Shown here: piece by piece, positions 15,548 through 44,281 of the stretch
Position numbering within the stretch: the first letter of the stretch is position 1
How the letters are laid out: each line of letters opens with the position of its first letter
Made by a program: the position numbers and the translations under genes
Assembly: GCA_934700345.1 (NCBI GenBank)
Contig: CAKUXP010000002.1
Location: 50,515 to 114,514, forward strand
Length of the DNA stretch: 64,000 nucleotides
Source: an uncultured Fibrobacter sp.
GTDB lineage: Bacteria > Fibrobacterota > Fibrobacteria > Fibrobacterales > Fibrobacteraceae
Direction of reading: 5' to 3'
Notes under the pieces: model-generated
Databases searched by the model: none
The model's input: the letters and a program-made list of their open reading frames with translations, nothing else
Told to the model about the DNA's origin: nothing

Positions 15548-16708
15548 TTGACGGTGATGGCAAATCTGCTTTTAGCGGTCATTTACGTTTCGTTTATAAG
15601 TTTGGGACTGCCCGATTCGCTGCTCGGTGCGGCGTGGCCGTCTATCTACCCGGAACTCGGGACGCCTATCTCGTCCGCGGGCATTTTGTCGATGATTATC
15701 GCGGTGGGGACGGTCGTGTCGTCGCTTGTGAGTGACCGGGTGACGCGCCTTTGGGGGGCGGGAAAGGTAAACGCTTTTAGCGTGCTTCTGACCGCGATTG
15801 CGCTTTTCGGCTTTTCGTCGAGCGGTTCGTTTGGGGAACTTTGTCTATGGGCGGTACCCTATGGTCTCGGGGCGGGAGCCGTCGATGCCGCTCTCAACAA
15901 CTACGTCGCGCTTCATTATAAGAGCCGTCACATGAGCTGGCTCCATTGCATGTGGGGAATCGGAGCGACCCTCGGTCCATACGCGATGGGATATGCGCTT
16001 TCACACGGGATGAATTGGACTGGCGGCTACCGGATTATTTCGGTTGTCCAGTTCGGGCTTGTCGCCGTCCTGTTCGCAAGTCTCCCTTTGTGGAAAAGGC
16101 GTTCGGATATGGCGAACGAGAAAAAGTCGGAACCGTTGCCGCTGCGGAAAGCTCTTGGAATGCCCGGAGCGAAAGAGATGATGCTCTGCTTCTTTTGTTA
16201 CAGCGCCGTGGAGCAGACGACGGGACTTTGGGCGGCGAGCTATCTGAACGGTGCCCGTGACTTTTCGGCAGAGGTTTCCGCAAGTCTTGCCGGGCTTTTC
16301 TTCGTGGGGATAACGGTCGGGAGAGCACTTTCGGGATTTGTCACGATGCGCCTTTCCGACGACCAAATGATTCGGCTCGGGCTTTGTATCATTCTCGTTG
16401 GAATTTTCCTCTTGTTCTTGCCGGTGAAGACGCTTTCCTTGGCGGGGCTTGTCGCCATCGGGCTTGGCTGTGCGCCGGTTTATCCCTGTATCATCCATTC
16501 GACGCCGGAGCGTTTCGGGGCGGAAAATTCGCAGGCTTTTGTGGGAATCCAGATGGCGAGCGCCTATGTCGGGACGACCTTGATGCCTCCGCTATTCGGA
16601 CTTATCGCAAGAAATTTGGGCATTTCTCTTTTGCCTGTATATTTAATCCTGTTTCTGTCACTTATGCTCTCGATGCATTTGAAATTGACGAAAATCACCC
16701 GGAAATAA
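15548..16708 (+). CDS. MFS transporter
   Basis: About 12 predicted transmembrane helices, a charged central loop, and an N-terminal GLPDSLLGAAWP-type MFS signature. Confidence 0.8.
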   Translation: MTVMANLLLAVIYVSFISLGLPDSLLGAAWPSIYPELGTPISSAGILSMIIAVGTVVSSLVSDRVTRLWGAGKVNAFSVLLTAIALFGFSSSGSFGELCLWAVPYGLGAGAVDAALNNYVALHYKSRHMSWLHCMWGIGATLGPYAMGYALSHGMNWTGGYRIISVVQFGLVAVLFASLPLWKRRSDMANEKKSEPLPLRKALGMPGAKEMMLCFFCYSAVEQTTGLWAASYLNGARDFSAEVSASLAGLFFVGITVGRALSGFVTMRLSDDQMIRLGLCIILVGIFLLFLPVKTLSLAGLVAIGLGCAPVYPCIIHSTPERFGAENSQAFVGIQMASAYVGTTLMPPLFGLIARNLGISLLPVYLILFLSLMLSMHLKLTKITRK

Positions 16709-33748: not shown

Positions 33749-35170
33749 ATGTTGGAAAAACTCTTTAAAATCACCGAGAACCGTTCTAGCGTTCGAACCG
33801 AAATCCTGGCGGGTCTCACCACGTTCATGACGATGGCGTATATCCTTGCGGTAAACCCCAGCATCCTTTCCGCTTCGGGAATGCCCAAGGGCGGCGTTTT
33901 TATCGCGACGGCTCTCGCGGCGGCTCTTGGCTCGACGCTGATGGCGCTCTTTTCGAACTATCCCTTTGTCCTCGCTCCAGGTCTCGGGCTGAACGCGTTT
34001 TTCTCCTACACGGTTGTCATCACGATGGGATACAGCTGGCAATTTGCCCTGCTTGCCGTCTTTGTCGAAGGCATTGTCTTTCTTGCGCTTTCGCTCACCT
34101 CTGTCCGGGAAAGCCTTTTCAACGCGATTCCGCTTTCGCTCAAGTCCGCCGTGGCGGTGGGCATCGGGCTTTTCATCACGTTCATCGCGTTTCAAGGGGC
34201 AAAGATTGTCGTCAATTCCGATGCGACGCTCGTAACGGTCATCAACTTCCACCGGGCGGATTTTCACACGACGGGAATCTGGGCGCTTCTCGCGATCATC
34301 GGGACGATTGTCACGGGATTTCTCGTTTCGAAAAAAATTCGGGCGGGAATTTTGCTCGGCATGTTCATCACGTGGTTTCTAGGCGTTCTCGCGGAACTTG
34401 TAGGAATCTACGTGCCGGATGCTTCCAAAGGATTTTTCTCCGTGGTCCCGCATTTTGGAAACTACTTCAGCGATTTGGGCAAGACTTTTTCGGAATTCGG
34501 GTCGATAGCCTTTGCCATTTTCCATCCGTCGTCTTGGACGCATTCGGTAAACGGCGCCGTGGATTTTTCGGGCTGGACCCTCGTCAAATCCTTGGACTTC
34601 TTTGTCGTGATGTTCGCCTTTTTCTTTGTCGATTTGTTTGATACGCTCGGAACGCTCATCGGCGTTTCGCTCAAAGGCGGCTTCCTGGATGCGAACGGAA
34701 AGCTTCCTCGGATTTCGGGCGCCCTCTATGCGGATTCCATCGCGACTTCGGTTGGAGCCGTTCTCGGAACTTCGACCACGACGACTTTTGTCGAAAGCGC
34801 AGCGGGCGTCGCCGCCGGGGGAAAGACCGGGTTCACGTCCATCTTCGCCGCGTTCCTGTTCATTGTATCAATTGTTTTCGCTCCGGTATTCTTGGCGATT
34901 CCCGGGTTTGCGACGGCTCCGGCCCTGGTCATTGTCGGCTTTTACATGATAAGCTCCGTATCGAAAATCGAGTTCAAGGATTATTCCAAGGCGATTCCCG
35001 CGTTCCTGTGCATTGTCGCGATGCCTCTAACCTACTCGATTTCGGACGGGATCATGTTCGGCGTAATCTCCTACACGGTGCTGAACTTTGTCCTCGGAAA
35101 GCGGAAGGATATCCATTGGATCATGTACATTCTGACCGTGCTCTTCGTGCTGAAATACGCTTTGATGTAG
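33749..35170 (+). CDS. NCS2 family nucleobase permease (AzgA/PbuG-like adenine/guanine/hypoxanthine permease)
   Basis: ILAGLTTFMTMAYILAVNPSIL and an ~14-TM architecture typical of the AzgA subfamily. Adjacent to apt. Confidence 0.8.
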   Translation: MLEKLFKITENRSSVRTEILAGLTTFMTMAYILAVNPSILSASGMPKGGVFIATALAAALGSTLMALFSNYPFVLAPGLGLNAFFSYTVVITMGYSWQFALLAVFVEGIVFLALSLTSVRESLFNAIPLSLKSAVAVGIGLFITFIAFQGAKIVVNSDATLVTVINFHRADFHTTGIWALLAIIGTIVTGFLVSKKIRAGILLGMFITWFLGVLAELVGIYVPDASKGFFSVVPHFGNYFSDLGKTFSEFGSIAFAIFHPSSWTHSVNGAVDFSGWTLVKSLDFFVVMFAFFFVDLFDTLGTLIGVSLKGGFLDANGKLPRISGALYADSIATSVGAVLGTSTTTTFVESAAGVAAGGKTGFTSIFAAFLFIVSIVFAPVFLAIPGFATAPALVIVGFYMISSVSKIEFKDYSKAIPAFLCIVAMPLTYSISDGIMFGVISYTVLNFVLGKRKDIHWIMYILTVLFVLKYALM

Positions 35171-35190
35171 CGAATCGTTTTTTGGAAAAG

Positions 35191-35218
35191 GACCGTCTTG
35201 CTGGCGGTCTTTTTTTTT
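35191..35218 (+). terminator. Rho-independent terminator after the permease gene
   Basis: GACCGtcttgctggCGGTC followed by a 9-T run. Confidence 0.6.
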
Positions 35219-35240
35219 GTGTGCACAATGCTTTGAAAAA

Positions 35241-35354
35241 TCGTTTCGACTTGTTATATTTCGATTCTCATAAAGAGGTTTTTAAATCAATGCATTTACG
35301 CGTCTTTTTCCTGTTGCTTCTTGTGTCCCTGGGGAACGTTCTTGCCGTGCAGTT
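35241..35354 (+). repeat. Cassette X copy 1: 5'UTR + RBS + signal peptide (MHLRVFFLLLLVSLGNVLAVQ), 114 bp
   Basis: 112 of 114 positions are identical to 36731-36844. The two copies are fused to completely different downstream coding sequence. Confidence 0.9.
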
Positions 35355-36366
35355 GCCCCAAGCGGTTTTTGCAGTTGGAAAGACTCAATACATAGAAACA
35401 GAGAAAAAACAAAACTACAGAATCTGTCTAGAAAATAATCAAAAAGGATTTTGGGATGGATCCATTCCGTTTGTGATGTCGACGGAAAATTGCCTTTTGG
35501 TGACCACTCCAAATCGAACAGGAAGTTTTTTGTTCGTACACTTTAACGATTCGATTTCCTCAGATAGCATTTGGCTTTTAAACAACCAAAAATTAATCGA
35601 TTTGTCAAAAGACGTTCATTTGTTGTGGAGTTTGGATTCCGTTGTTGGACCGTTCAACAAAAGACGCGTGTATGGTTCGTATAAAGCGACTCGATTGAAC
35701 AAGATTCTTGTCGTCGATCGAACGGAAGCGACGGTTGGCGAAGTAAAATATCTGTGTGATTATTTTGGAGTGGCTTACAAAGCTTCTAATTCGTGGTATC
35801 CAGACAATAACGCGTTAAATCATCCCGATATGCCACAAGATCCGGGGTTTGCCACAGTTCCTAATTACGCTAACAATAGAAGTAAACTGGAAGGTTTTGA
35901 AATTTCTTCGTATGCAAACGGAGCGGATACAACCAAAAACGGGTATCGGCTTCCTACTCGAGATGAATGGGTTGCTTTACAGAGAGGCGCTTCTAAAAAA
36001 GATTATTATTGGGGAAATGACACGGATTCACTAACCATTTCCCAATATGAATGGTATAGGTCCGCCAAGGAACGAGTTCATGATGTCGGGTTGTTGAAAC
36101 CAAATCCGTACGGATTATATGATGTCATGGGAAATGCGATTGAATACACTTTACAGGGACGCGAATGTGTCAGCAAGGATGAAAAATCTCGAGAATGCTT
36201 TATAAAAGACGATTTAAAACAACACGAGGCAAAGAACGTTTGCTATACGCGTATAAAATATAATGCGGATAAAAAAATACAAACAAAGGAGTGTCGTGTC
36301 GGATTTTCCCTAAACGAATTTTGGGGCTTCAGATTGGTCCGCCAGCTTTTTATAGATAATCATTAG
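35290..36366 (+). CDS. Secreted FGE-sulfatase/SUMF1-domain protein (paralog A), AT-rich body
   Basis: Signal peptide from cassette X. NGYRLPTRDEWVALQRG, PNPYGLYDVMGNAIEYT and C-terminal GFRLVRQLF are hallmark FGE-sulfatase domain motifs. The true start is the ATG at 35290; the track ORF from 35008 overlaps the permease. Confidence 0.7.
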   Translation: MHLRVFFLLLLVSLGNVLAVQLPQAVFAVGKTQYIETEKKQNYRICLENNQKGFWDGSIPFVMSTENCLLVTTPNRTGSFLFVHFNDSISSDSIWLLNNQKLIDLSKDVHLLWSLDSVVGPFNKRRVYGSYKATRLNKILVVDRTEATVGEVKYLCDYFGVAYKASNSWYPDNNALNHPDMPQDPGFATVPNYANNRSKLEGFEISSYANGADTTKNGYRLPTRDEWVALQRGASKKDYYWGNDTDSLTISQYEWYRSAKERVHDVGLLKPNPYGLYDVMGNAIEYTLQGRECVSKDEKSRECFIKDDLKQHEAKNVCYTRIKYNADKKIQTKECRVGFSLNEFWGFRLVRQLFIDNH

Positions 36367-36683
36367 ATGGTAAAAAACATGAAAGCCAAAATAATTCTTT
36401 TTCAAGCCTTGACGGTGTTGGCTTTTTCGGTGGTGGCCGAAATGTCTCGCTTCTTTCATGCTGCCTATACTATATTTTTCTGTAAAGATAAGTTTTGCCG
36501 ATGTTACGAAAACCAATGGGATTGTCTGCATCGTCTGTCGGAAGAGAGCTGCGCGGATCCTGAAATGTGGAGGATTGACTGATGAAAATTTTTACTTGGT
36601 TCACCGTTCTTTTTCTAGTATTGAGCGAAGTCTTTGCGCTGGAGTACAATGCCGTATTCAATGCGAAGGGTGTGCCGCTTTGA
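36367..36683 (+). pseudogene. Two gene remnants. The first is the 5' end of a paralog-B-like gene (MKAKIILFQALTVLAFSVVAE...). The second is a truncated paralog-C-like start (MKIFTWFTVLFLVLSEVFALEYNAVFNAKGVPL*) preceded by cassette Y.
   Basis: ggtaaaaaacatgaaagccaaaataattcttttt parallels ggtaaaaaccatgaaaatcaaaataatccttttt at 41477. Positions 36504-36673 are ~88% identical to 42876-43046 (cassette Y plus the first ~30 codons of paralog C), then stop abruptly at TGA 36681-36683. Confidence 0.55.
36504..36673 (+). repeat. Cassette Y copy 1: 5'UTR (GGAGG RBS) plus start of a paralog-C-like ORF, truncated
   Basis: Read directly: acgaaaaccaatgggattgtctgca(t/c)cgtctgtcggaagagagctg(c/t)gcggatcctgaaatgtggaggattgac(t/c)gatga(a/g)aattttta... 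is shared with 42876-43046. Confidence 0.85.
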
Positions 36684-36730
36684 AAAAAAACGAAAACTAG
36701 TCTTTTTTTTGTAAACAAAGTTTTGGAAAT

Positions 36731-36844
36731 TCGTTTCGGCTTATTATATTTCGATTCTCATAAAGAGGTTTTTAAATCAATGCATTTACGCGTCTTTTTC
36801 CTGTTGCTTCTTGTGTCCCTGGGGAACGTTCTTGCCGTGCAGTT
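36731..36844 (+). repeat. Cassette X copy 2
   Basis: See copy 1. The two copies are 1490 bp apart. Confidence 0.9.
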
Positions 36845-39797
36845 CCCCCATTCGAAATGGAACCTCGCCACCTATCACGGAGCCTACGCGATATTCGGCG
36901 AGGGCTTTGTCTCCGTGACGGACGGAGGCTCCGACTATTGGCATGTGCAGCTGACTAGGAGCGGCATCGAGCTGCGTGCCGGGAAAACCTACGAAGTACG
37001 GTTCTTCCTGCAGGGCGTAAGCGCGAGGCGTTATGTGGAGGTCCGCATCGGCAGGGACGGTTTTCCGTACGACGCGTTTGCCGAGTTCGGCGAGGTCGTG
37101 GCGACCGCGAACGGAAGGACGGTGACGAGAACTTTCACGATGCAGTCGGGAAGCGTAAGCAACGCCCGGTTCGAGTTCAATCTGGGCAAGGCTACGGGAA
37201 CGGTATATGTCGCCGACATTAGCCTGGACTGCCTCGATTGCGGCGATGATGTCGGAGCCGGCGATTTGCCGGTGTTTCCCGGGGAAAACCTGGACTATGC
37301 GGTCGTAGCCGATACGGTCGATTTCCGGGACGGCTCCATGTCCTTGGGGAGCGTGTTCGGGACAAGGCTTGAACTGGGGGCGGACTCCAAAGTCTTCGGC
37401 GATGTCGATGTCGCGGCGGCGTGCTTCCTTCGGGAACGCACAAAAATTGATGGCGGCTTGCGCTACGGGCGTCCGTGCGCGGAGCAGAACGGCGTGTCCG
37501 CGAAGACGAAAAGCGCCGCCAAACTATCGAAACCCGCATTCGGCGTCCCGAATATCGTTCCCGGGATTTCCCCGGTTTCTGTCGGATTGAAACAGTCCGC
37601 CGAGCTTCCTCCCGGGAGTTACGGGACTTTCTATGCCGCGGCGAAGTCCAGAATCCGTTTTTCTTCGGGAGCTTACGCGTTCCAGTACTTTTACACGGAA
37701 CCCGATGCTGAAATAATTTTTGACTTGTCCGCTGGGCCGGTTACGGTCGGCGTGTCCGGAAGCGTTCGCTTTGGCGACAGGAACCGGTTCTCCGTTATCG
37801 GTGGAAACCCGAGCGAAATTTTGTGGAACGTTTCCGGGGAAAGAGTCGATATGGGGACCGACGGCCTTTATTTCGGAAAATTTGTCGCCCCGGATGCCTG
37901 CGTGCGCATCCCCTCCCGTTCGCATCTCGTCGGTGGCGTCTATGCGAGAAAGTTCGCGATCGAGCCGCAATCGACCGTGTCCAGGGAACCTCGCGCCAGG
38001 GAAATCTCCCACAGCGAAGAGCACTTCGGGCCATTTTTCGAACCGGGAAGGTTTCGCTACCGTTCCCAGGTTTCGCCTTCCCTGTCCAGGATAGAGATGT
38101 TCGTCTATGCGGACAGCCTCCAGGTCACGGTGAATGGAGGCCCTTCAAGGGTCGTTGAGCTTTCGTCTTCGGAAGTTTCTGTCAAAGTGTCGCTCAGGCG
38201 GAACCCGGTGGCGGGGTTCCCTTCCGAAGCGTTCCGCAGCAGCTATCGGTTTGACTTTCTGAAAAATGCGAATTACCGCATCTACTGGAATCCGCAGACG
38301 CCGTGCAGGCAGGGTTGCGACGGGATGACCGCGGCGACGGCCGTCGGCGATTTTGGAAAGGCTCTCGAAACGGCAAGAACGACCGGTCGGGAAATCAACA
38401 TGGCCGGCGGGACCTGGAACGCCTCGGAAAGTTTCCCGGACAGCGTCGTCTCCTGGAAAGTGGGCTTCGAGCTTGTCGGCAACACAGAAAACCTGGGGGA
38501 CCTGTCTTCCGAAAACGACCTGCCCCTGATCGATTTGGGAAATGCCTCCCACATCGAGATAGAGGGGCGCTCTCCGCGCAGCCTGACCGGTTTCCGCATC
38601 GCGAACGGATACAATGCCGGTGACGGCGGCGCAATTTATTCGAACAGCCAGAAGCTCGGGCTTAAAAATCTTCTGGTTTCTTCGTCAAAATCTGGAGGTG
38701 CTGGCGGTGCGGTCTTTGCTTCCGATACGATAAATTTGGAAAATGTCCGTATTTTAAAAAGCTCGTCATTTGGAAACGGAGGAGCTGTTTCTGTCGGCGG
38801 ATTCGCAAAGTTTCTCAACGTTCTGTTTACGGAAAATACTTCTGCAAAAAATGGTGGGGCGCTTGGATTGAATGGTGCAAATGCTTATATTGGAAATGGC
38901 ATATTTTATGGAAATCGATCCGGACTTTCTGGCGGAGCGGTTTACAATGAAAATTCTTTGCTCAATATATGGAATTCAACGTTTTTTGCAAATTTGGCAA
39001 CTACGGCAAACGGAGCTCTTGGGGGAAATGCAAAAGGAATGATTGGAAATAGCATTTTTTGGAAAAATATCACTTCTAAATGCAGCTCAGAAGATTGTTC
39101 TTCGGAGGTCGTTGTTGGTTATTCCGCTACAAATTCCTCCTTTACAAATGCTTATGTTGGCAATAACATTTATGTTGGTGATCCGAAGTTTGCGGATGAA
39201 AAAAATCCAGAAGGCAGAAATGCATATATGGATTATGATGCAGGAATCAACTTGTCCGAGGACTCTCCTCTTTTAAAAGCGGGAATAGCGGATATAAATG
39301 TTCCGACTGACGATTTACTGTCGGAAATTCGAAATATGGCGAATATTGCCTTGGGTGCCTATGCGTATGCAAAACCTAAGCGTGAAACATCTTTTGGTGT
39401 ATTAGATAAGGATGGATCGGTTGTTTCAATAAAGCCTTCAATTCCCTTGATAAATGCAATTTCTGGAGATTATTACAGGGAATATCTAGCGACATCGCCT
39501 TATGCTCGTGTTTGGAAGGCGACGGTTAAAAAGCACAAGAAAACAAAAAAAGATAAGGCTCATGTCAAAATGTGGGTAGTGAACAGACGTGGTGAAAAAA
39601 TTACAAAAGAACCCGTAGAATTTGAAGTTTACCGAAATGGGGAAGAGAACGGTCGCTATGTATTTCAAACGATGACCAAAACTGCCGGTAAACCGGTTTT
39701 ATTTTCGATGCGCCCTGAAGATGCTGGAAATTATAAGGATGCTATTGTTTTATATATGAAGTCTGTTTCTGATTATTTCTATTACGAGGCGGAATAG
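36780..39797 (+). CDS. Large secreted surface protein (1006 aa): N-terminal CBM4/9-like domain, central repetitive region, parallel beta-helix with Pmp/GGA-type repeats. The C-terminal ~380 aa are compositionally distinct (AT-rich).
   Basis: Signal peptide from cassette X (ATG 36780; the track ORF from 36723 includes UTR). The CBM-like region is WHVQLTRSGIELRAGKTYEVRFFLQG. The beta-helix shows repeated GGAIYSN / GGAGGAVFAS / NGGAVSVG / NGGALGLN / SGGAVYNE. G+C drops abruptly near 38640. Confidence 0.6.
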   Translation: MHLRVFFLLLLVSLGNVLAVQFPHSKWNLATYHGAYAIFGEGFVSVTDGGSDYWHVQLTRSGIELRAGKTYEVRFFLQGVSARRYVEVRIGRDGFPYDAFAEFGEVVATANGRTVTRTFTMQSGSVSNARFEFNLGKATGTVYVADISLDCLDCGDDVGAGDLPVFPGENLDYAVVADTVDFRDGSMSLGSVFGTRLELGADSKVFGDVDVAAACFLRERTKIDGGLRYGRPCAEQNGVSAKTKSAAKLSKPAFGVPNIVPGISPVSVGLKQSAELPPGSYGTFYAAAKSRIRFSSGAYAFQYFYTEPDAEIIFDLSAGPVTVGVSGSVRFGDRNRFSVIGGNPSEILWNVSGERVDMGTDGLYFGKFVAPDACVRIPSRSHLVGGVYARKFAIEPQSTVSREPRAREISHSEEHFGPFFEPGRFRYRSQVSPSLSRIEMFVYADSLQVTVNGGPSRVVELSSSEVSVKVSLRRNPVAGFPSEAFRSSYRFDFLKNANYRIYWNPQTPCRQGCDGMTAATAVGDFGKALETARTTGREINMAGGTWNASESFPDSVVSWKVGFELVGNTENLGDLSSENDLPLIDLGNASHIEIEGRSPRSLTGFRIANGYNAGDGGAIYSNSQKLGLKNLLVSSSKSGGAGGAVFASDTINLENVRILKSSSFGNGGAVSVGGFAKFLNVLFTENTSAKNGGALGLNGANAYIGNGIFYGNRSGLSGGAVYNENSLLNIWNSTFFANLATTANGALGGNAKGMIGNSIFWKNITSKCSSEDCSSEVVVGYSATNSSFTNAYVGNNIYVGDPKFADEKNPEGRNAYMDYDAGINLSEDSPLLKAGIADINVPTDDLLSEIRNMANIALGAYAYAKPKRETSFGVLDKDGSVVSIKPSIPLINAISGDYYREYLATSPYARVWKATVKKHKKTKKDKAHVKMWVVNRRGEKITKEPVEFEVYRNGEENGRYVFQTMTKTAGKPVLFSMRPEDAGNYKDAIVLYMKSVSDYFYYEAE

Positions 39798-39799
39798 CG

Positions 39800-41476
39800 A
39801 TGTTTGGAGATTTGGTGAAATGGTGTCTGCTTCTTTCTTTTTTTATGACTTTGATTGCTTGTGATGACGACAAGGTCACTGGGAATACGCGTAAAGAAGA
39901 TTGCGATGAAAGCAACAACCCAAATTGCTATAAGACTATACCGGGAGTTTCTCCGATAAGTGGTGATTATGATTATAAGTCATATGATGATGGGGATGTG
40001 GTCACGTTCCAATGGGACCAGACGCTGGCTTGGTTTCTTCAATCCGAAAATCACCAATATGGTTATGATCGAGATCCTTTTTCAAATTTAGAAGATTATG
40101 TGGAACGCGGAAAGGATGTGTATATGTCTGTCCTAAAAGGTGAAATGGCAAAAGTGAAAATTGTTGTAGACCAAAATTCAAAAAAGATTTATCGAGTGCA
40201 TCGAATTAGTGAAAATAAAGAAATTTTAGAAAAAAATATTATCGTTGGAACGGATGTGTGTCAAGAAAAAAGCTGTGTAAAAGAATACGCCTTGCCTGTT
40301 GGACATTATGCTGTATTTTATGATGAATTGGATAAAAAAAGATATTTGCACATAATTGAATACTCAAAAAAGACGAACGATATTTATTTTGTGCAGCTTG
40401 GAGATGAATATGGAAATACATGCAATATCGGAAATGCTAATGGATGTTATACCAAGAAATCTGTTCAGGACAATTATAACCGAGTGATGGCTCAGGTGGT
40501 AACTGAGGGAAATTTTATCGAAGTCGATCCGACAAAGATGGATTTGGAAACGGCAGGACCGAATAACATTCTTATTGTTGATTTGAATAGTACGAAAGAC
40601 TCAAAATTACCGCTTGTCAATCAAATCTATGATAAAATTTTAGCAAGCAAGGAATTTGGCTATGGGAATGAAGAGGAAAAATATAACGAGATTAGAGAAA
40701 AATATGAAAACGGTGAAGTAGATGTTTCTATCTTCAATTATGCTGTCGAAGCTTATAATTCCGCTGTGTTACGGCATCGGCAGAAGCATATTGTTTTAGC
40801 GATTAACGAAATGCGGATACGATGGAAATTTTTTATAGGGGATGATTACTCTTTAGGCAATTTGAGTGCGTTTGAACGCGCTTGTGAAGTGGATGAAGAT
40901 GTTTGTCAATCGGGTTCTTTGGCTATGACATTGGAAAGTAGCTGTGGCGATAAGGACGTCCCTATAAAATTGAGTGTTGCAAAAACAAAAGACAACGATC
41001 AGTTTATTCCTAAGATTTCTGGATTTGGGGCTTTAAAAAATGGTTGCGAATACAGTATCTATGCGGATGTTTATCCTTTTGTCCCCGATGATCCGAATGC
41101 CGCCCAAATAACCATCACTAACTATAAATCGGAAAAAGATAAAACGGTAATTGGTGGCATGGTATGGGGAAGTCATTTGAATGGTTCTGCTTCACTGAAT
41201 ACGATTGTTCATGAAATCGGTCATTCGTTTGGTTTGACGGATTTACATAAGGATCCAAATGACCCTTCCAATGCTCCAGAACGTTATTACTATTTTGCCT
41301 TTAATGAAGGCAATATCATGGCGAGCTATGTGCCGTCCGGAGAACGGCTTCGTTATCGACCGCTTTTTGTTGTAAATACGGGGACTAACGATAGGATTCT
41401 TTTAGGAAATGGGTGGTATGCCACCGAAAACCAGTGGGATTGTGTCCGTTCAACAAGTAAATGTTATAAAAAGTAG
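39800..41476 (+). CDS. AT-rich lipoprotein with an HExxHxxGxxD putative zinc-metallopeptidase motif
   Basis: Lipobox FFMTLIACDDD. HEIGHSFGLTDLH near the C-terminus. Starts 3 nt after the previous stop. Markedly AT-rich; the ORF itself is confident but the function is not. Confidence 0.5.
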   Translation: MFGDLVKWCLLLSFFMTLIACDDDKVTGNTRKEDCDESNNPNCYKTIPGVSPISGDYDYKSYDDGDVVTFQWDQTLAWFLQSENHQYGYDRDPFSNLEDYVERGKDVYMSVLKGEMAKVKIVVDQNSKKIYRVHRISENKEILEKNIIVGTDVCQEKSCVKEYALPVGHYAVFYDELDKKRYLHIIEYSKKTNDIYFVQLGDEYGNTCNIGNANGCYTKKSVQDNYNRVMAQVVTEGNFIEVDPTKMDLETAGPNNILIVDLNSTKDSKLPLVNQIYDKILASKEFGYGNEEEKYNEIREKYENGEVDVSIFNYAVEAYNSAVLRHRQKHIVLAINEMRIRWKFFIGDDYSLGNLSAFERACEVDEDVCQSGSLAMTLESSCGDKDVPIKLSVAKTKDNDQFIPKISGFGALKNGCEYSIYADVYPFVPDDPNAAQITITNYKSEKDKTVIGGMVWGSHLNGSASLNTIVHEIGHSFGLTDLHKDPNDPSNAPERYYYFAFNEGNIMASYVPSGERLRYRPLFVVNTGTNDRILLGNGWYATENQWDCVRSTSKCYKK

Positions 41477-41485
41477 GTAAAAACC

Positions 41486-42856
41486 ATGAAAATCAAAATA
41501 ATCCTTTTTCTCGCCATTGCGGTGCAGGCCTTTGCCGCCAAGGATTCTCTCTACGAAATCAATGGAACGGTTTTTAACAAGGAACACGGGCCGAGAGGTC
41601 CCAAGGCGATAGTCAAGGTTTCCCGTACTGTACCGAGGATAAAGCCGCTCCGCGCAAGCGAGGATTCGTTTCAGGTTTCCTTGAGAAAAGGTGGAGATGA
41701 GCGTTGGCTTGAAATGGAAAAGAATACGGTCTATTCCGTCTGTGTCGATGATGATGGCGGCTTTTGGAAAGTTGAAGATTTCAAGTACGAAAAAGAGGGA
41801 AGTTCATGCATTAGATTGCATTCCGGGAATTACGTGAAAAACGGGAAAATTCAGTATGCGACCAGGATGGGCAACGGTTACACTTTTCAGTTGTTGGTCG
41901 GAATGAAGTACATCGATCTCAGGGGGAAAAAACATCTTTTGGGGTATTTAGAGCTGGGCGAAGGCTTCTATTACAAGGAAGGCCTTTGGTATCCGATCGA
42001 TCCGGGAAGGTACGAAGCTATGGACAAGGTTCTGGCTGTGGATAAGTATATGGTCACCGAATGCGAATTTGTTCAGGCTCTGTGGGACTCCATTCCTGCG
42101 CAAGCCAAAAGGGAGTACCAGAGGAATCATCCCTTTTGGATAGAGAAAAAAAAGACCATGACGAAAAACGGATTTTGCGATGCGCATGATTCCGCGGTGG
42201 TCCGTGTCAATTTGTACTATGCCCTTGTCTATGCGAATCTTCGAAGTGTTCGGGACGGTTTTCAACCGGTCTATTCTTTCGAATGGACGGATAATGGATA
42301 CGGCCTTGCGGAAGACGGCAGCTTTGTCATTTCCGATGTCAATTTTCACGTAGAAAACTCGGCTGTCCGCGTGAGGATAGATACAAGCGCGAACGGCTAT
42401 CGTTTGCCCTATTACGATGAATGGATGGCGTTGGGACGCGCCGGACATGATTATACGTTTTATGTATGGGGCCGTGATGGCGATTCCGCAATTGCCGCTC
42501 GGCACGCTTGGTTTGGCGTCCGGGACCCGGAAGACAAGTATTTAAAAATGAACAGGAACGATTGGAATGAACGAAGCCGCTTGGAACGTTCTTGCGGGAA
42601 ATGGCTACAAAAATCTAAGCCGGTAGGAATGCTGAAACCGAATGACTACGGATTGTATGACATGTTTGGTCTTGTGTGCGAAAACGTTATCATGGAAAAA
42701 CACCAGGTATATTTCCATGGGGTTGCGGCTACCTGCAAGGGCGGCTTTTTGGCGGATACCCTCAAGGCGTTGAACTTTAAAGCGAAGTGCAGGACTGATT
42801 TTTTTGATCCGGAAAGACTTTTCCAAGGATTGCGCCTGGTCAGGCAAATCAAGTGA
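41486..42856 (+). CDS. Secreted FGE-sulfatase/SUMF1-domain protein (paralog B)
   Basis: Signal peptide MKIKIILFLAIAVQAFAA. VTECEFVQALWD, ANGYRLPYYDEWMALGRAG, KPNDYGLYDMFGLVCENV and C-terminal GLRLVRQIK. Confidence 0.7.
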   Translation: MKIKIILFLAIAVQAFAAKDSLYEINGTVFNKEHGPRGPKAIVKVSRTVPRIKPLRASEDSFQVSLRKGGDERWLEMEKNTVYSVCVDDDGGFWKVEDFKYEKEGSSCIRLHSGNYVKNGKIQYATRMGNGYTFQLLVGMKYIDLRGKKHLLGYLELGEGFYYKEGLWYPIDPGRYEAMDKVLAVDKYMVTECEFVQALWDSIPAQAKREYQRNHPFWIEKKKTMTKNGFCDAHDSAVVRVNLYYALVYANLRSVRDGFQPVYSFEWTDNGYGLAEDGSFVISDVNFHVENSAVRVRIDTSANGYRLPYYDEWMALGRAGHDYTFYVWGRDGDSAIAARHAWFGVRDPEDKYLKMNRNDWNERSRLERSCGKWLQKSKPVGMLKPNDYGLYDMFGLVCENVIMEKHQVYFHGVAATCKGGFLADTLKALNFKAKCRTDFFDPERLFQGLRLVRQIK

Positions 42857-42875
42857 TGGTGCAAAATGTTGAAAT

Positions 42876-43046
42876 TACGAAAACCAATGGGATTGTCTGC
42901 ACCGTCTGTCGGAAGAGAGCTGTGCGGATCCTGAAATGTGGAGGATTGACCGATGAGAATTTTTACCTGCTTCGCCGTTCTTTTTCTGGCGTTGAACAAA
43001 ATCTTTGCGTTGGAGTACCATGTCGTATTCGATGCGAAGGGGCGGC
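42876..43046 (+). repeat. Cassette Y copy 2 (intact; drives paralog C)
   Basis: See copy 1 at 36504-36673. Confidence 0.85.
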
Positions 43047-44281
43047 TTATCGGAAAAACAGAGGGCTCGGCAAAGATCGGTTACGAGAATTTCGGGAAAG
43101 GCGCCTATTTTGTACTCCGTAAAGGCACTGCGGATAAAAAATCGCCGGAATATAAACGCTCCGTTCCCGCCTTAGAATCTGGTCGGACAAGGTGGTATGA
43201 GGCGGAAAAAAATGAACATGTCAAGATTTGCCCGTCCAATTCGTCGAGCGGAGGAGTTTGGCTTGCCAAGATTCAAGCCGAGGTGGATGCTTCAAACTGT
43301 CTCGGTGTCTTTACGGGTCAATTTGTCCGGAGTCTTTTCGCCCTGTATGTTCCGGACACTTTGAAAATGGAATCTGCGGATACGAGCTGGATTCTTGTCG
43401 GACAAAAAATCGCGCCCATTTCGAAGGGAACGCATCGTTTCTTCGAGGGGAAAGAAGCTCCGCTTCGAAAGATGCAAAATCCGGAATCGGGATATCGAGA
43501 TATAAATTTCTCTTATGATTTGATTGTCGATGCTATGGAGTTCCGTGTGGGCGATGCGGAATGGTTGATTGGTTCGGCTGAAACAGACTCTTTGATAGGA
43601 AAGGACTTGGATTTCATTGATGAACGGAAACTTTTTAACCGAAGTTCCTTGCCCATGGAAACATCGGAAATATATCGCCTGGCAAACGCCCGCAGCGCAC
43701 GTGACGGCCTAGATTCCGTGTACAGGCTTTTACCAAAGGATGTGTGGGAAAAAAGCGGGCTTCCCTTTTTGGACATTTCCGAACGGAGAAATTTAGTCCT
43801 TGTACTTGACACTTCTGCGAATGGCTACCGAGCGCCTTTTTTTGAAGAATGGGCCGCTCTGCAACGCGCAGGAGGTTCGGGAGATTTCTTCTGGGGTAAC
43901 GATAATTCTCTGTCTGGAGAAGCGATCAAATACGAACAACTGTTTGGGGATACGGCCTCTGCCTTTTGCCGTCCGTCGGGCCAAAAGACGCCGAATCCGT
44001 ATGGCCTGTACGATGTCTATGGAAATGCTTTGGAATATGTCTTGAAACGGTCCGTATCGTCGGGGCGTTATTACCACATGATCGAATGCCAAACGGATTT
44101 TAAATATGACCGCAGCCCGGTGTGTTCTCTGTTCTTTGACATGGTCGGCTACAGGGCGAGCAAGAGGCGAAAAATCTGCATCGGAGAGTTTGATGCAGAG
44201 GGAAATGTCTCCGAGACATGCACGCCCTATATGAAGCGGACCTTTGTCAAAGGCTTCCGCCTTGTGCGAAAGCTGCGGTGA
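42953..44281 (+). CDS. Secreted FGE-sulfatase/SUMF1-domain protein (paralog C)
   Basis: Signal peptide MRIFTCFAVLFLALNKIFA. ANGYRAPFFEEWAALQRAG, PNPYGLYDVYGNALEYV and C-terminal GFRLVRKLR. Confidence 0.7.
   Translation: MRIFTCFAVLFLALNKIFALEYHVVFDAKGRLIGKTEGSAKIGYENFGKGAYFVLRKGTADKKSPEYKRSVPALESGRTRWYEAEKNEHVKICPSNSSSGGVWLAKIQAEVDASNCLGVFTGQFVRSLFALYVPDTLKMESADTSWILVGQKIAPISKGTHRFFEGKEAPLRKMQNPESGYRDINFSYDLIVDAMEFRVGDAEWLIGSAETDSLIGKDLDFIDERKLFNRSSLPMETSEIYRLANARSARDGLDSVYRLLPKDVWEKSGLPFLDISERRNLVLVLDTSANGYRAPFFEEWAALQRAGGSGDFFWGNDNSLSGEAIKYEQLFGDTASAFCRPSGQKTPNPYGLYDVYGNALEYVLKRSVSSGRYYHMIECQTDFKYDRSPVCSLFFDMVGYRASKRRKICIGEFDAEGNVSETCTPYMKRTFVKGFRLVRKLR

Follow-up and report, generated by a model that had tools for sequence, protein, structure and literature searches.

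How did partial copies of several genes come to lie end to end behind a gene for an FGE-sulfatase-like protein, and do they still serve the cell? The question is raised by positions 36367–36702 of a stretch of 64,000 nucleotides (nt; the window) from an uncultured gut Fibrobacteraceae bacterium, which is Hallerella-like. This segment, the remnant, follows gene A (paralog A) in a locus where three-gene units form an array that varies among strains and is flanked by a permease gene and an Rrf2 regulator pair. A unit comprises a large CBM_4_9 protein, a HExxH lipoprotein (X), and an FGE-sulfatase-like protein (A', B, or C). An original prediction described the remnant as what deletions had left of a B-type and a C-type gene, mirroring the B/C junction downstream. 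Our analysis indicates that it is very probably a composite recombination scar of three neighbouring genes joined by deletions and that, in all likelihood, it is a product of ordinary genome decay without a selected function. The coordinates of all features are collected in Table 1.

Repeats behind gene A

Using blastn, 36300–36800 was compared with the whole window, and three non-self matches were obtained. The first, 36369–36426 (GGTAAAAAACATGAAAGCC...), aligned ungapped with 41476–41533, that is, with the stop of X1 and the ribosome-binding site (RBS) and start of B, at 79.3% identity over 58 nt (E 8e-9), which confirmed that the start of B is reproduced right after the stop of A. The second, 36504–36670, aligned ungapped with 42875–43041 at 89.8% (150/167 nt, E 6e-61), close to the approximately 88% that had been given for this stretch, named cassette Y, and the B/C junction. 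The third and stronger repeat, directly behind the remnant, had been overlooked, as had the single reading frame described below; here 36703–36800 matched 35213–35310 at 90.8% over 98 nt (E 2e-34).

The TAG of gene A ends at 36366. The C-like open reading frame (ORF) at 36582–36683, hereafter ORF33, is cut off at a TGA after 33 codons, as predicted, only 317 nt beyond the stop of A, and is followed by A8, 12 nt, and the T8 of 36703–36710. The bodies of B and C are absent and not masked by sequencing errors, as 317 nt stand against 1371 nt for B, approximately 1550 nt for the X2 gene described below, and 1329 nt for C. With these alignments and the missing bodies, the description as deletion-derived remnants of a B-type and a C-type gene held.

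Composition of the remnant

Positions 36367–36582 translate as one open frame (MVKNMKAKIILFQALTVLAFSVVAEMSRFFHAAYTIFFCKDKFCRCYENQWDCLHRLSEESCADPEMWRID, then the stop), and the stop codon TGA overlaps the ATG of ORF33 as TGATG. This chimeric ORF is made of a B-type piece, a 77-nt piece that is open in the same frame on both sides, and an X2-type tail; a C-type head and a short junction stretch complete the remnant. Gene callers annotated it on the source scaffold and also on over 24 further contigs. In an exact protein look-up, its form of 71 amino acids (aa) had no record and its 67-aa form was on record, and no Pfam or NCBIfam match was found for either form.

The B-type piece and its surroundings (36340–36426, running from the end of A across the spacer into the B-like start) were 92% identical over 87 nt to the intact A'–B junction at 15760–15846 of L014, one of 28 related loci (L-numbered) that were compared with the window. 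A full-length B directly follows A' in L014, so that the proposed check of related strains for a complete B gave a positive result. The piece itself was approximately 90% identical to the B of L014 and 79% identical to the B of the window. Its derivation from the B of the same genome was thus not borne out, and on these alignments the start descends from a B that followed A' and not from the X1–B junction of the window.

The X2-type tail was identical at 79/79 positions to the 3' end of X2 in the genomes of the L005 type. The homology of the C-type head to 42953–43041 was clear to 36670 and may reach approximately 36690 with indels. The head was called as a 33-aa gene in L003 and L004. The remnant contains no PF03781 domain, as only the C signal peptide is spanned by ORF33; the proteins A, B, and C do match PF03781. 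For the 77-nt piece, no match was found in the window and the 28 loci by blastn (word size 7) or by tblastn and tblastx (word size 2), nor in a search of 5.8 billion proteins or in JGI metagenome contigs (peptide patterns including AEMSRFFH and FFCKDKFC).

The X2 gene as the source of cassette Y

Cassette Y had been read as a 5' untranslated region outside coding sequence. It is instead made of the last 26 codons of X2, with the GGAGG site of C lying inside them. X2 is intact in L008, a locus of a Hallerella metagenome-assembled genome (MAG), where it encodes a lipoprotein of 516 aa directly before C; the protein ends in ...YENQWDCLHRLSEESCADPEMWRIDR, with the stop codon of the gene overlapping the C start codon (ATG). 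L015 has a more distant ortholog, of 519 aa, in the same arrangement. The 67-aa ORF ends in 26 residues that match the X2 C-terminus exactly (YENQWDCLHRLSEESCADPEMWRID). Because cassette Y is an X2 coding tail, the B–C spacer of the window is itself an X2-tail relic. Its frame has a TGA two codons upstream and no usable start codon, and the X2 homology of L005 and L008 to the window starts at 42875.

The tail of the chimeric ORF resembles an X-type C-terminus, since X1 ends in ...YATENQWDCVRSTSKCYKK. All X-type proteins in the related loci have an E-x-Q-W-[DE]-C...C tail approximately 60 residues after HExxH, which in the full proteins takes the form HEIGHSFGL, HELVHLLGL, or HEMGHMFGL, and this ENQWDC...C tail is kept across X1, X2, and X' down to approximately 25–40% overall identity. 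The X-type proteins gave weak, sub-threshold matches to Reprolysin_3 and to the M6 metalloprotease domain. Of such a protein, the 67-aa ORF has only the tail, being without the lipobox N-terminus and without the HExxHxxGL motif.

Among 5.8 billion proteins, the 67-aa form retrieved two clusters only, one being its own at 96% identity. The second was a 79-aa ORF, MHELVHLLGL...SYENQWDCLHRLSEESCADPEMWRID, with the HExxH motif and the identical tail, located directly before a C gene. X2 is frameshifted (419 + 79 aa) in the L005-type genomes (L005 4583–6129, compared with the intact genes at L008 10456–12006 and L015 3735–5294).

The 5' edge of the tail homology (TTACGAAAACC) is the same in the remnant and in the B–C spacer and coincides with an 18-mer coding for ENQWDC. 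This 18-mer had three matches in the window against 0.03 expected by chance, one near the end of the intact X1 and the others at the 5' homology edges of both X2-tail relics. The 18-mer was also considered as a site-specific recombination site and rejected; it was found only at the three X tails in the window, as the most conserved X coding stretch. Independent deletions of most of C, with its last 25–70 codons left, were observed in L007 (16075–16260) and L014 (17234–17308), and the breakpoint in L007 is immediately 3' of the ENQWDC 17-mer in an X2-tail relic.

Related loci and descent of the pieces

The proteins of the window were mapped onto the related loci and combined with gene calls, from the permease to the Rrf2 pair. 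At least seven architectures were found in this interval among close relatives. The order is CBM–X2–C in L008 and CBM–X1–B–X2 tail–C in L012. An M6-like gene comes first in L007, followed by CBM–X1–B–C-tail relic, and in L014, followed by CBM-a–X'–A' (406 aa)–B (full length)–C-tail relic. L003 and L004 have CBM-a–X' (513 aa)–A' (406 aa)–71-aa relic–33-aa relic and then the cassette and CBM. Both remaining groups begin with the signal-peptide fusion of A described below (SP::A) and the 67-aa and 33-aa relics, continuing with CBM–X2–C in L005, L021, L024, and L028 and with CBM–X1–B–X2 tail–C in the window, L022, L023, L025, L026, L029, and L030. L008, L010, L011, and L012 are without A and the remnant, and their permease gene is followed directly by a single cassette copy. 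As relatives hold full-length or differently truncated versions, the claim of ongoing gain and loss at the locus was confirmed.

The same comparison changed the proposed origin of the remnant. It had been taken for a copy of the B/C junction of its own genome. The X2 tail and C head agreed with the live X2–C junction of the same genome at 165/167 positions in the L005 type and at 150–151/167 in the window type, and the remnant of the window agreed with the L005-type X2–C junction at 159/167. The L005-type junction is thus the closer relative (159–165/167, compared with 150/167 for the window's own). The 5–6 differences between the remnant alleles all lean toward the live copy resident in the same genome, which is a signature of gene conversion. 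The tail and the C head were therefore derived from, or converted by, an allele with an intact X2–C junction.

The gene before the remnant had been regarded as the counterpart of X; A is instead the third FGE-sulfatase-like paralog. A, B, and C are only approximately 30% identical pairwise and are thus old paralogs, whereas the DNA repeats of 80–100% identity are recent. A single duplication of X, B, and C with two deletions does not suffice either, as at least three junctions are required and the 77-nt piece has no known source.

Fusion of gene A and the repeated cassette

Gene A is an in-frame fusion of the signal peptide of a CBM gene with residues 71–406 of A'. The 406-aa A' of L003 and L004 aligns to the window only from 35356, which corresponds to A' codon 71, and all short-A strains share the junction ...VQFP/QAVFAVGK at a CCCCA microhomology at approximately 35350–35356. 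From this alignment edge and the shared junction, one deletion would have fused the CBM-a signal peptide to the body of A'. A' belongs to a CBM–X'–A' unit of its own, which is still complete in L003, L004, and L014.

The fused signal peptide is part of a 143-nt cassette present twice, before the body of A and before the CBM_4_9 gene. The two copies are approximately 91% identical over their first 45 nt and then 100% identical over approximately 100 nt. In strains of the L025 type, copy 1 is a diverged allele (MHLRIFFLLLLVSLGNALALQ; L022, L023, L025–L027, L029, and L030 were compared), and the pattern indicates a putative recent conversion between the two copies in the lineage of the window.

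Copy 1 starts within the T-run of the permease terminator, whose fold reaches −19.8 kcal/mol (z −3.75; 0/200 shuffles equal it). Copy 2 opens with the last bases of the same terminator stem and the T-run (36700–36703, ...GTC + T8). A terminator scan of 36684–36712 found no terminator, but only an A8/U8 pairing of −9.2 kcal/mol (z +1.06; 176/200 shuffles were as stable). The T-run after ORF33 goes back to the tail of the permease terminator, and the stem is missing.

Proposed history of the locus

A possible course of events can be proposed from the architectures above. The join of the C head to the T-run would be the novel junction of a tandem duplication, or of a tandem integration of the allele of another strain, and the duplicated segment would have run from the permease terminator to approximately codon 35 of C. 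Later deletions would have taken out the B body. In the lineage of the window, a subsequent CCCCA-mediated deletion may have eliminated X' together with the CBM-a body and A' codons 1–70, giving SP::A. Homology for the rearrangements could have been supplied by the 18-nt ENQWDC motif of all X genes and by the 143-nt cassette repeats. Gene conversion would hold the remnant close to the live X2–C junction where one exists, and the single-cassette strains (L008 and L010–L012) could stem from recombination between cassette copies.

Functional evidence and alternative explanations

The remnant is probably co-transcribed with A, and translation could occur, given the strong GGAGG site of the 33-codon ORF. 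Diversity was calculated from 14 sequences, 10 of which had been picked by identical protein, which biases amino-acid-changing sites downward. The chimeric ORF had a diversity (pi) of 0.0074, with 0.0056, 0.0093, and 0.0073 at codon positions 1, 2, and 3, from only seven variable sites in a low-diversity patch. The corresponding values were 0.0155, 0.0115, and 0.0493 for A and 0.0052, 0.0026, and 0.0571 for the permease. Third-position excess was thus seen in A, the CBM gene, and the permease and was absent from the ORF with its seven variable sites, and the real contrast is if anything larger because the sampling favoured identical proteins.

Selection on the ORF was also considered from its low diversity alone (2 segregating sites in 156 nt, compared with approximately 19% at the silent sites of its neighbours) and rejected, as 8.5% of sliding intervals of 156 nt were equally low. 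This sliding-window control placed the low-diversity patch at approximately 36100 to 36700, an extent of approximately 600 nt that includes the 3' end of A and ordinary coding sequence.

No homolog beyond the lineage was retrieved, as the 5.8 billion proteins held one 90% cluster (six variants) and the broken X2-tail ORF, and none was found in JGI metagenome contigs. Rfam over 35000–37000 returned only hits of E 0.17 and 0.93, far under the gathering scores, and no stable fold was found in the remnant (z +1.06 and +1.23).

Several points weigh against the interpretation as a scar formed by deletions. A deletion history that leaves the 77-nt middle piece without a source is incomplete. Present-day architectures are the only basis for the tandem-duplication step and for the sequence of events, which may have been different because strains exchange segments. 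Both internal junctions of the 71-codon ORF are in one frame without a stop, for which the chance is roughly 0.03. No contig with a broken ORF was found (one protein variant alone occurs in more than 40 index blocks), and the six known protein variants agree in all of their last 47 residues. The neighbouring genes carry roughly 10 independent disruptions over 5.4 kb, corresponding to approximately 0.6 expected in 317 nt. Intactness is weak evidence, because of this low expectation, the low local diversity, and the short length of the ORF.

Alternatively, the 67-aa ORF could be a newly born chimeric gene, in which the Sec signal peptide of B (MKAKIILFQALTVLAFSVVA/EM) would export a 45-residue, five-cysteine peptide. 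The peptide would end in the disulfide-type tail (C-x8-C) of all X lipoproteins and might serve as a decoy, a competitor, or a partner of any molecule that binds this tail. Besides the frame kept over two junctions, the intactness, and the invariant C-terminus, such a gene birth is favoured by the several independent annotation runs that called the ORF as a gene and by the conservation of the ENQWDC...C tail in X1, X2, and X', which implies that the tail matters in the parent proteins. We nevertheless consider it unlikely. There is no silent excess (two third-position compared with five first- or second-position variable sites), and the invariance belongs to the 600-nt patch that also covers ordinary coding sequence. 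The ORF has no homolog outside one species-level lineage, and its RBS is weaker than that of B (ATGGTAAAAAAC compared with TAGGTAAAAACC). Its middle 26 residues are without any match, and the tail represents only 26 of approximately 516 X2 residues, without the HExxH region.

That the remnant is kept as a silent donor or acceptor cassette, varying the 5' ends of surface-protein genes by gene conversion with the live X2–C junction and between the two promoter/signal-peptide cassettes, in the manner of silent-cassette antigenic variation, is quite improbable. The lean of the remnant alleles toward the resident live copy fits such a role, as do the 2/167 differences from its own live junction in the L005 type, compared with 16–17 in the window type, and the cassette that is 100% identical over approximately 100 nt in the window and diverged in the L025 type. 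However, concerted evolution of any nearby repeat yields the same pattern without a selected role, there is a single remnant and no archive, and no recombinase or invertase gene is among the called genes of the locus. The part that could be donated consists of signal-peptide and tail codons only, not of exposed protein regions. It is unlikely that the chimeric ORF was recently born, that the remnant is a conversion partner reshaping the X2–C junction, or both. If true, either would be a datable gene birth from deletion debris in a gut symbiont, with intermediate architectures still segregating.

A regulatory leader of the CBM operon (a small upstream ORF, attenuator, or small RNA) is highly improbable. 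The remnant does lie 100–200 nt upstream of the CBM gene, with a strongly initiating 33-codon ORF and a T-run behind it, but the CBM gene has its own promoter cassette downstream of the remnant, and the remnant-free strains (L008 and L010–L012) carry the same cassette directly after the permease terminator. The fold and Rfam results given above and the lack of a hairpin before the T-run likewise speak against a stable or conserved structure.

An assembly artefact, with repeats collapsed or strains joined, is hardly credible: the source is a metagenome scaffold (ENA ERZ28615684, scaffold_73, 175 kb), repeats of 100–170 nt occur in the region, and several related contigs end inside the repeated CBM gene, but the remnant is no such artefact because at least 13 independent assemblies, made with different assemblers from different samples, show its architecture base for base (contigs from ENA MEGAHIT k141 and k99, Logan, and SPAdes MAGs, many spanning the locus), and the unique junctions (SP::A, B start/77-nt piece, 77-nt piece/X2 tail, and C head/T-run) are impossible by repeat collapse.

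Host, gene content, and further variation

A scan of the CBM protein against species-representative genomes placed the locus in Fibrobacteraceae. The permease protein was 100% identical in a Hallerella sp. MAG and 99% identical in an uncultured Fibrobacter sp. MAG from Hadza samples. The locus was also observed on MAGs titled Senegalimassilia, Oscillospiraceae, Alistipes onderdonkii, Sodaliphilus, Methanomethylophilaceae, and 'archaeon' (L007, L010, L011, L014, L019, and L020). The permease was 94–99% identical in protein in L007, L010, L011, L014, and L019, and none was found in L020. These contigs with unrelated titles look mis-binned.

Table 1. Features of the window around the remnant
Feature	Coordinates	Strand	Description
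Intrinsic terminator of the xanthine/uracil permease gene	35186–35218	+	GGACCGTC-loop-GGCGGTC, then T9
Cassette copy 1	35213–35355	+	T-run; promoter-like TTGAAA-16-TATATT (35233–35260); AAAGAGG RBS; ATG 35290; 22-codon signal peptide MHLRVFFLLLLVSLGNVLAVQ
Gene A (paralog A)	35290–36366	+	358 aa; true start ATG 35290; FGE-sulfatase-like PF03781, E 1.6e-12 (Pfam)
Chimeric ORF	36367–36582	+	71 aa, or 67 aa from ATG 36379 (start used by gene callers); MKAKIILFQALTVLAFSVVAEMSRFFHAAYTIFFCKDKFCRCYENQWDCLHRLSEESCADPEMWRID
B-type piece	36369–36426	+	Start of a B gene: RBS region and 16 codons (signal peptide)
Orphan piece	36427–36503	+	77 nt, open in the same frame on both sides
X2-type tail	36504–36582	+	Last 26 codons (YENQWDC...MWRID, from TAC 36505) and stop; holds GGAGG of the next gene
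C-type head	36582–36683	+	Approximately 30 codons homologous to the C start (signal peptide and approximately 10 residues); TGA after 33 codons
Junction stretch	36684–36702	+	A-run and ACTAGTC between C head and cassette copy 2; not a terminator
Cassette copy 2	36703–36845	+	Before the CBM_4_9 gene; promoter-like TTGGAA-16-TATATT (36723–36750)
CBM gene	36780–39797	+	1005 aa; start ATG 36780; CBM_4_9 (Pfam)
X1	39800–41476		558 aa; Pfam: sub-threshold metalloprotease match only, around HEIGHSFGL motif
ENQWDC-coding 18-mer	41426–41443	+	GAAAACCAGTGGGATTGT, near the end of intact X1
B	41486–42856		456 aa (1371 nt); FGE-sulfatase-like PF03781 (Pfam)
Second X2-tail relic	42876–42956	+	Most of the B–C spacer; reads YENQWDCLHRLSEESCADPEMWRIDR and stop; stop overlaps C ATG at 42953
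C	42953–44281		442 aa (1329 nt); FGE-sulfatase-like PF03781 (Pfam)

The CBM_4_9 gene (36780–39797) is a mosaic with a breakpoint at approximately 38644–38760. Its 5' 1.9 kb is 94–96% identical to that of strains in which the 3' 1 kb differs strongly, and the 3' part travels with the X type that follows (X1, X2, or X'). This suggests that the swapped unit consists of the 3' third of the CBM gene, X, and the FGE-like gene.

Across the strains, A, X1, B, and C have been inactivated independently at least 10 times. The changes correspond to window positions 35995, 39842, 40125, 40229, 43043, and 43210 and, in L005 and L021–L030, also to A codon 76, X1 codon 228, B codon 137, and C codon 380. Several are 1-nt indels in A6, A7, or T7 runs, one is a 16-nt insertion, and four are nonsense codons; the 1-nt indels in homopolymer runs may represent phase variation. 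The M6-like gene between the permease and CBM genes encodes a secreted HEFGHVLGL protein of 783 aa in L014 (7485–9836, minus strand), occupies the same place in L007 and L019, and is absent from the window. To the right of C, a 327-aa gene and an Eco57I/N6_Mtase-like gene replace the Rrf2 pair in some strains of the window type, as a further structural variant at the edge of the locus: L022 (15755–17543), L023 (13841–15818), and L030 (9140–11117).

Significance and comparison with known systems

The remnant itself is of little weight, being gene debris of a familiar kind, and its value lies in context and annotation. In this human-gut Fibrobacteraceae species, the interval from the permease to the Rrf2 pair is a hotspot at which units have been duplicated, fused, lost, and exchanged among strains, and genes have been knocked out independently many times. 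The remnant and the SP::A fusion are markers that order some of these events, and a short paralog-conserved motif and a 143-nt promoter/signal-peptide cassette emerge as recombination substrates. In annotation, the 'hypothetical proteins' of 67 and 33 aa need to be flagged as fragments, A should be recorded as a fusion gene, and the B–C 'intergenic spacer' as a gene relic.

Compared with the proteins from which its parts come, the remnant retains little. The 67-aa ORF shares with the X-type HExxH lipoproteins of Fibrobacteraceae the X2 C-terminus and the stop/start overlap with an FGE-like gene; unlike them, it has no lipobox, no body of approximately 490 residues, and no HExxH, and a B-type signal peptide replaces the N-terminus of X. 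From the FGE-sulfatase-like (PF03781) genes A, B, and C, the remnant keeps the RBS and 16 codons of B and the RBS and approximately 30 codons of C, both coding for signal peptides, whereas the PF03781 domain is wholly missing from both pieces.

Neisseria pilS/pilE and Borrelia vls are silent-cassette systems that operate by gene conversion. The remnant resembles them as a promoterless partial copy near an expressed copy, with sequence exchange between the two. It differs in that there is one remnant and no array, that only signal-peptide and tail codons are present, and that no dedicated recombination machinery or sequence was seen in the locus.

The closest likeness is to the fragments left by deletion or unequal recombination in contingency or surface-protein loci. 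As in such loci, pieces from the 5' and 3' ends of neighbouring paralogs lie joined head to tail, the breakpoints lie at a microhomology (CCCCA) or a paralog motif (the ENQWDC 18-mer) with flanking direct repeats, the architecture changes from strain to strain, and the neighbouring genes are often inactivated. The present case differs in that two fusions stay in frame (SP::A and the 67-aa ORF) and one 77-nt piece is without a source. The remnant is of the kind that unequal and illegitimate recombination commonly leaves where tandem paralogs make up a variable surface-protein locus.

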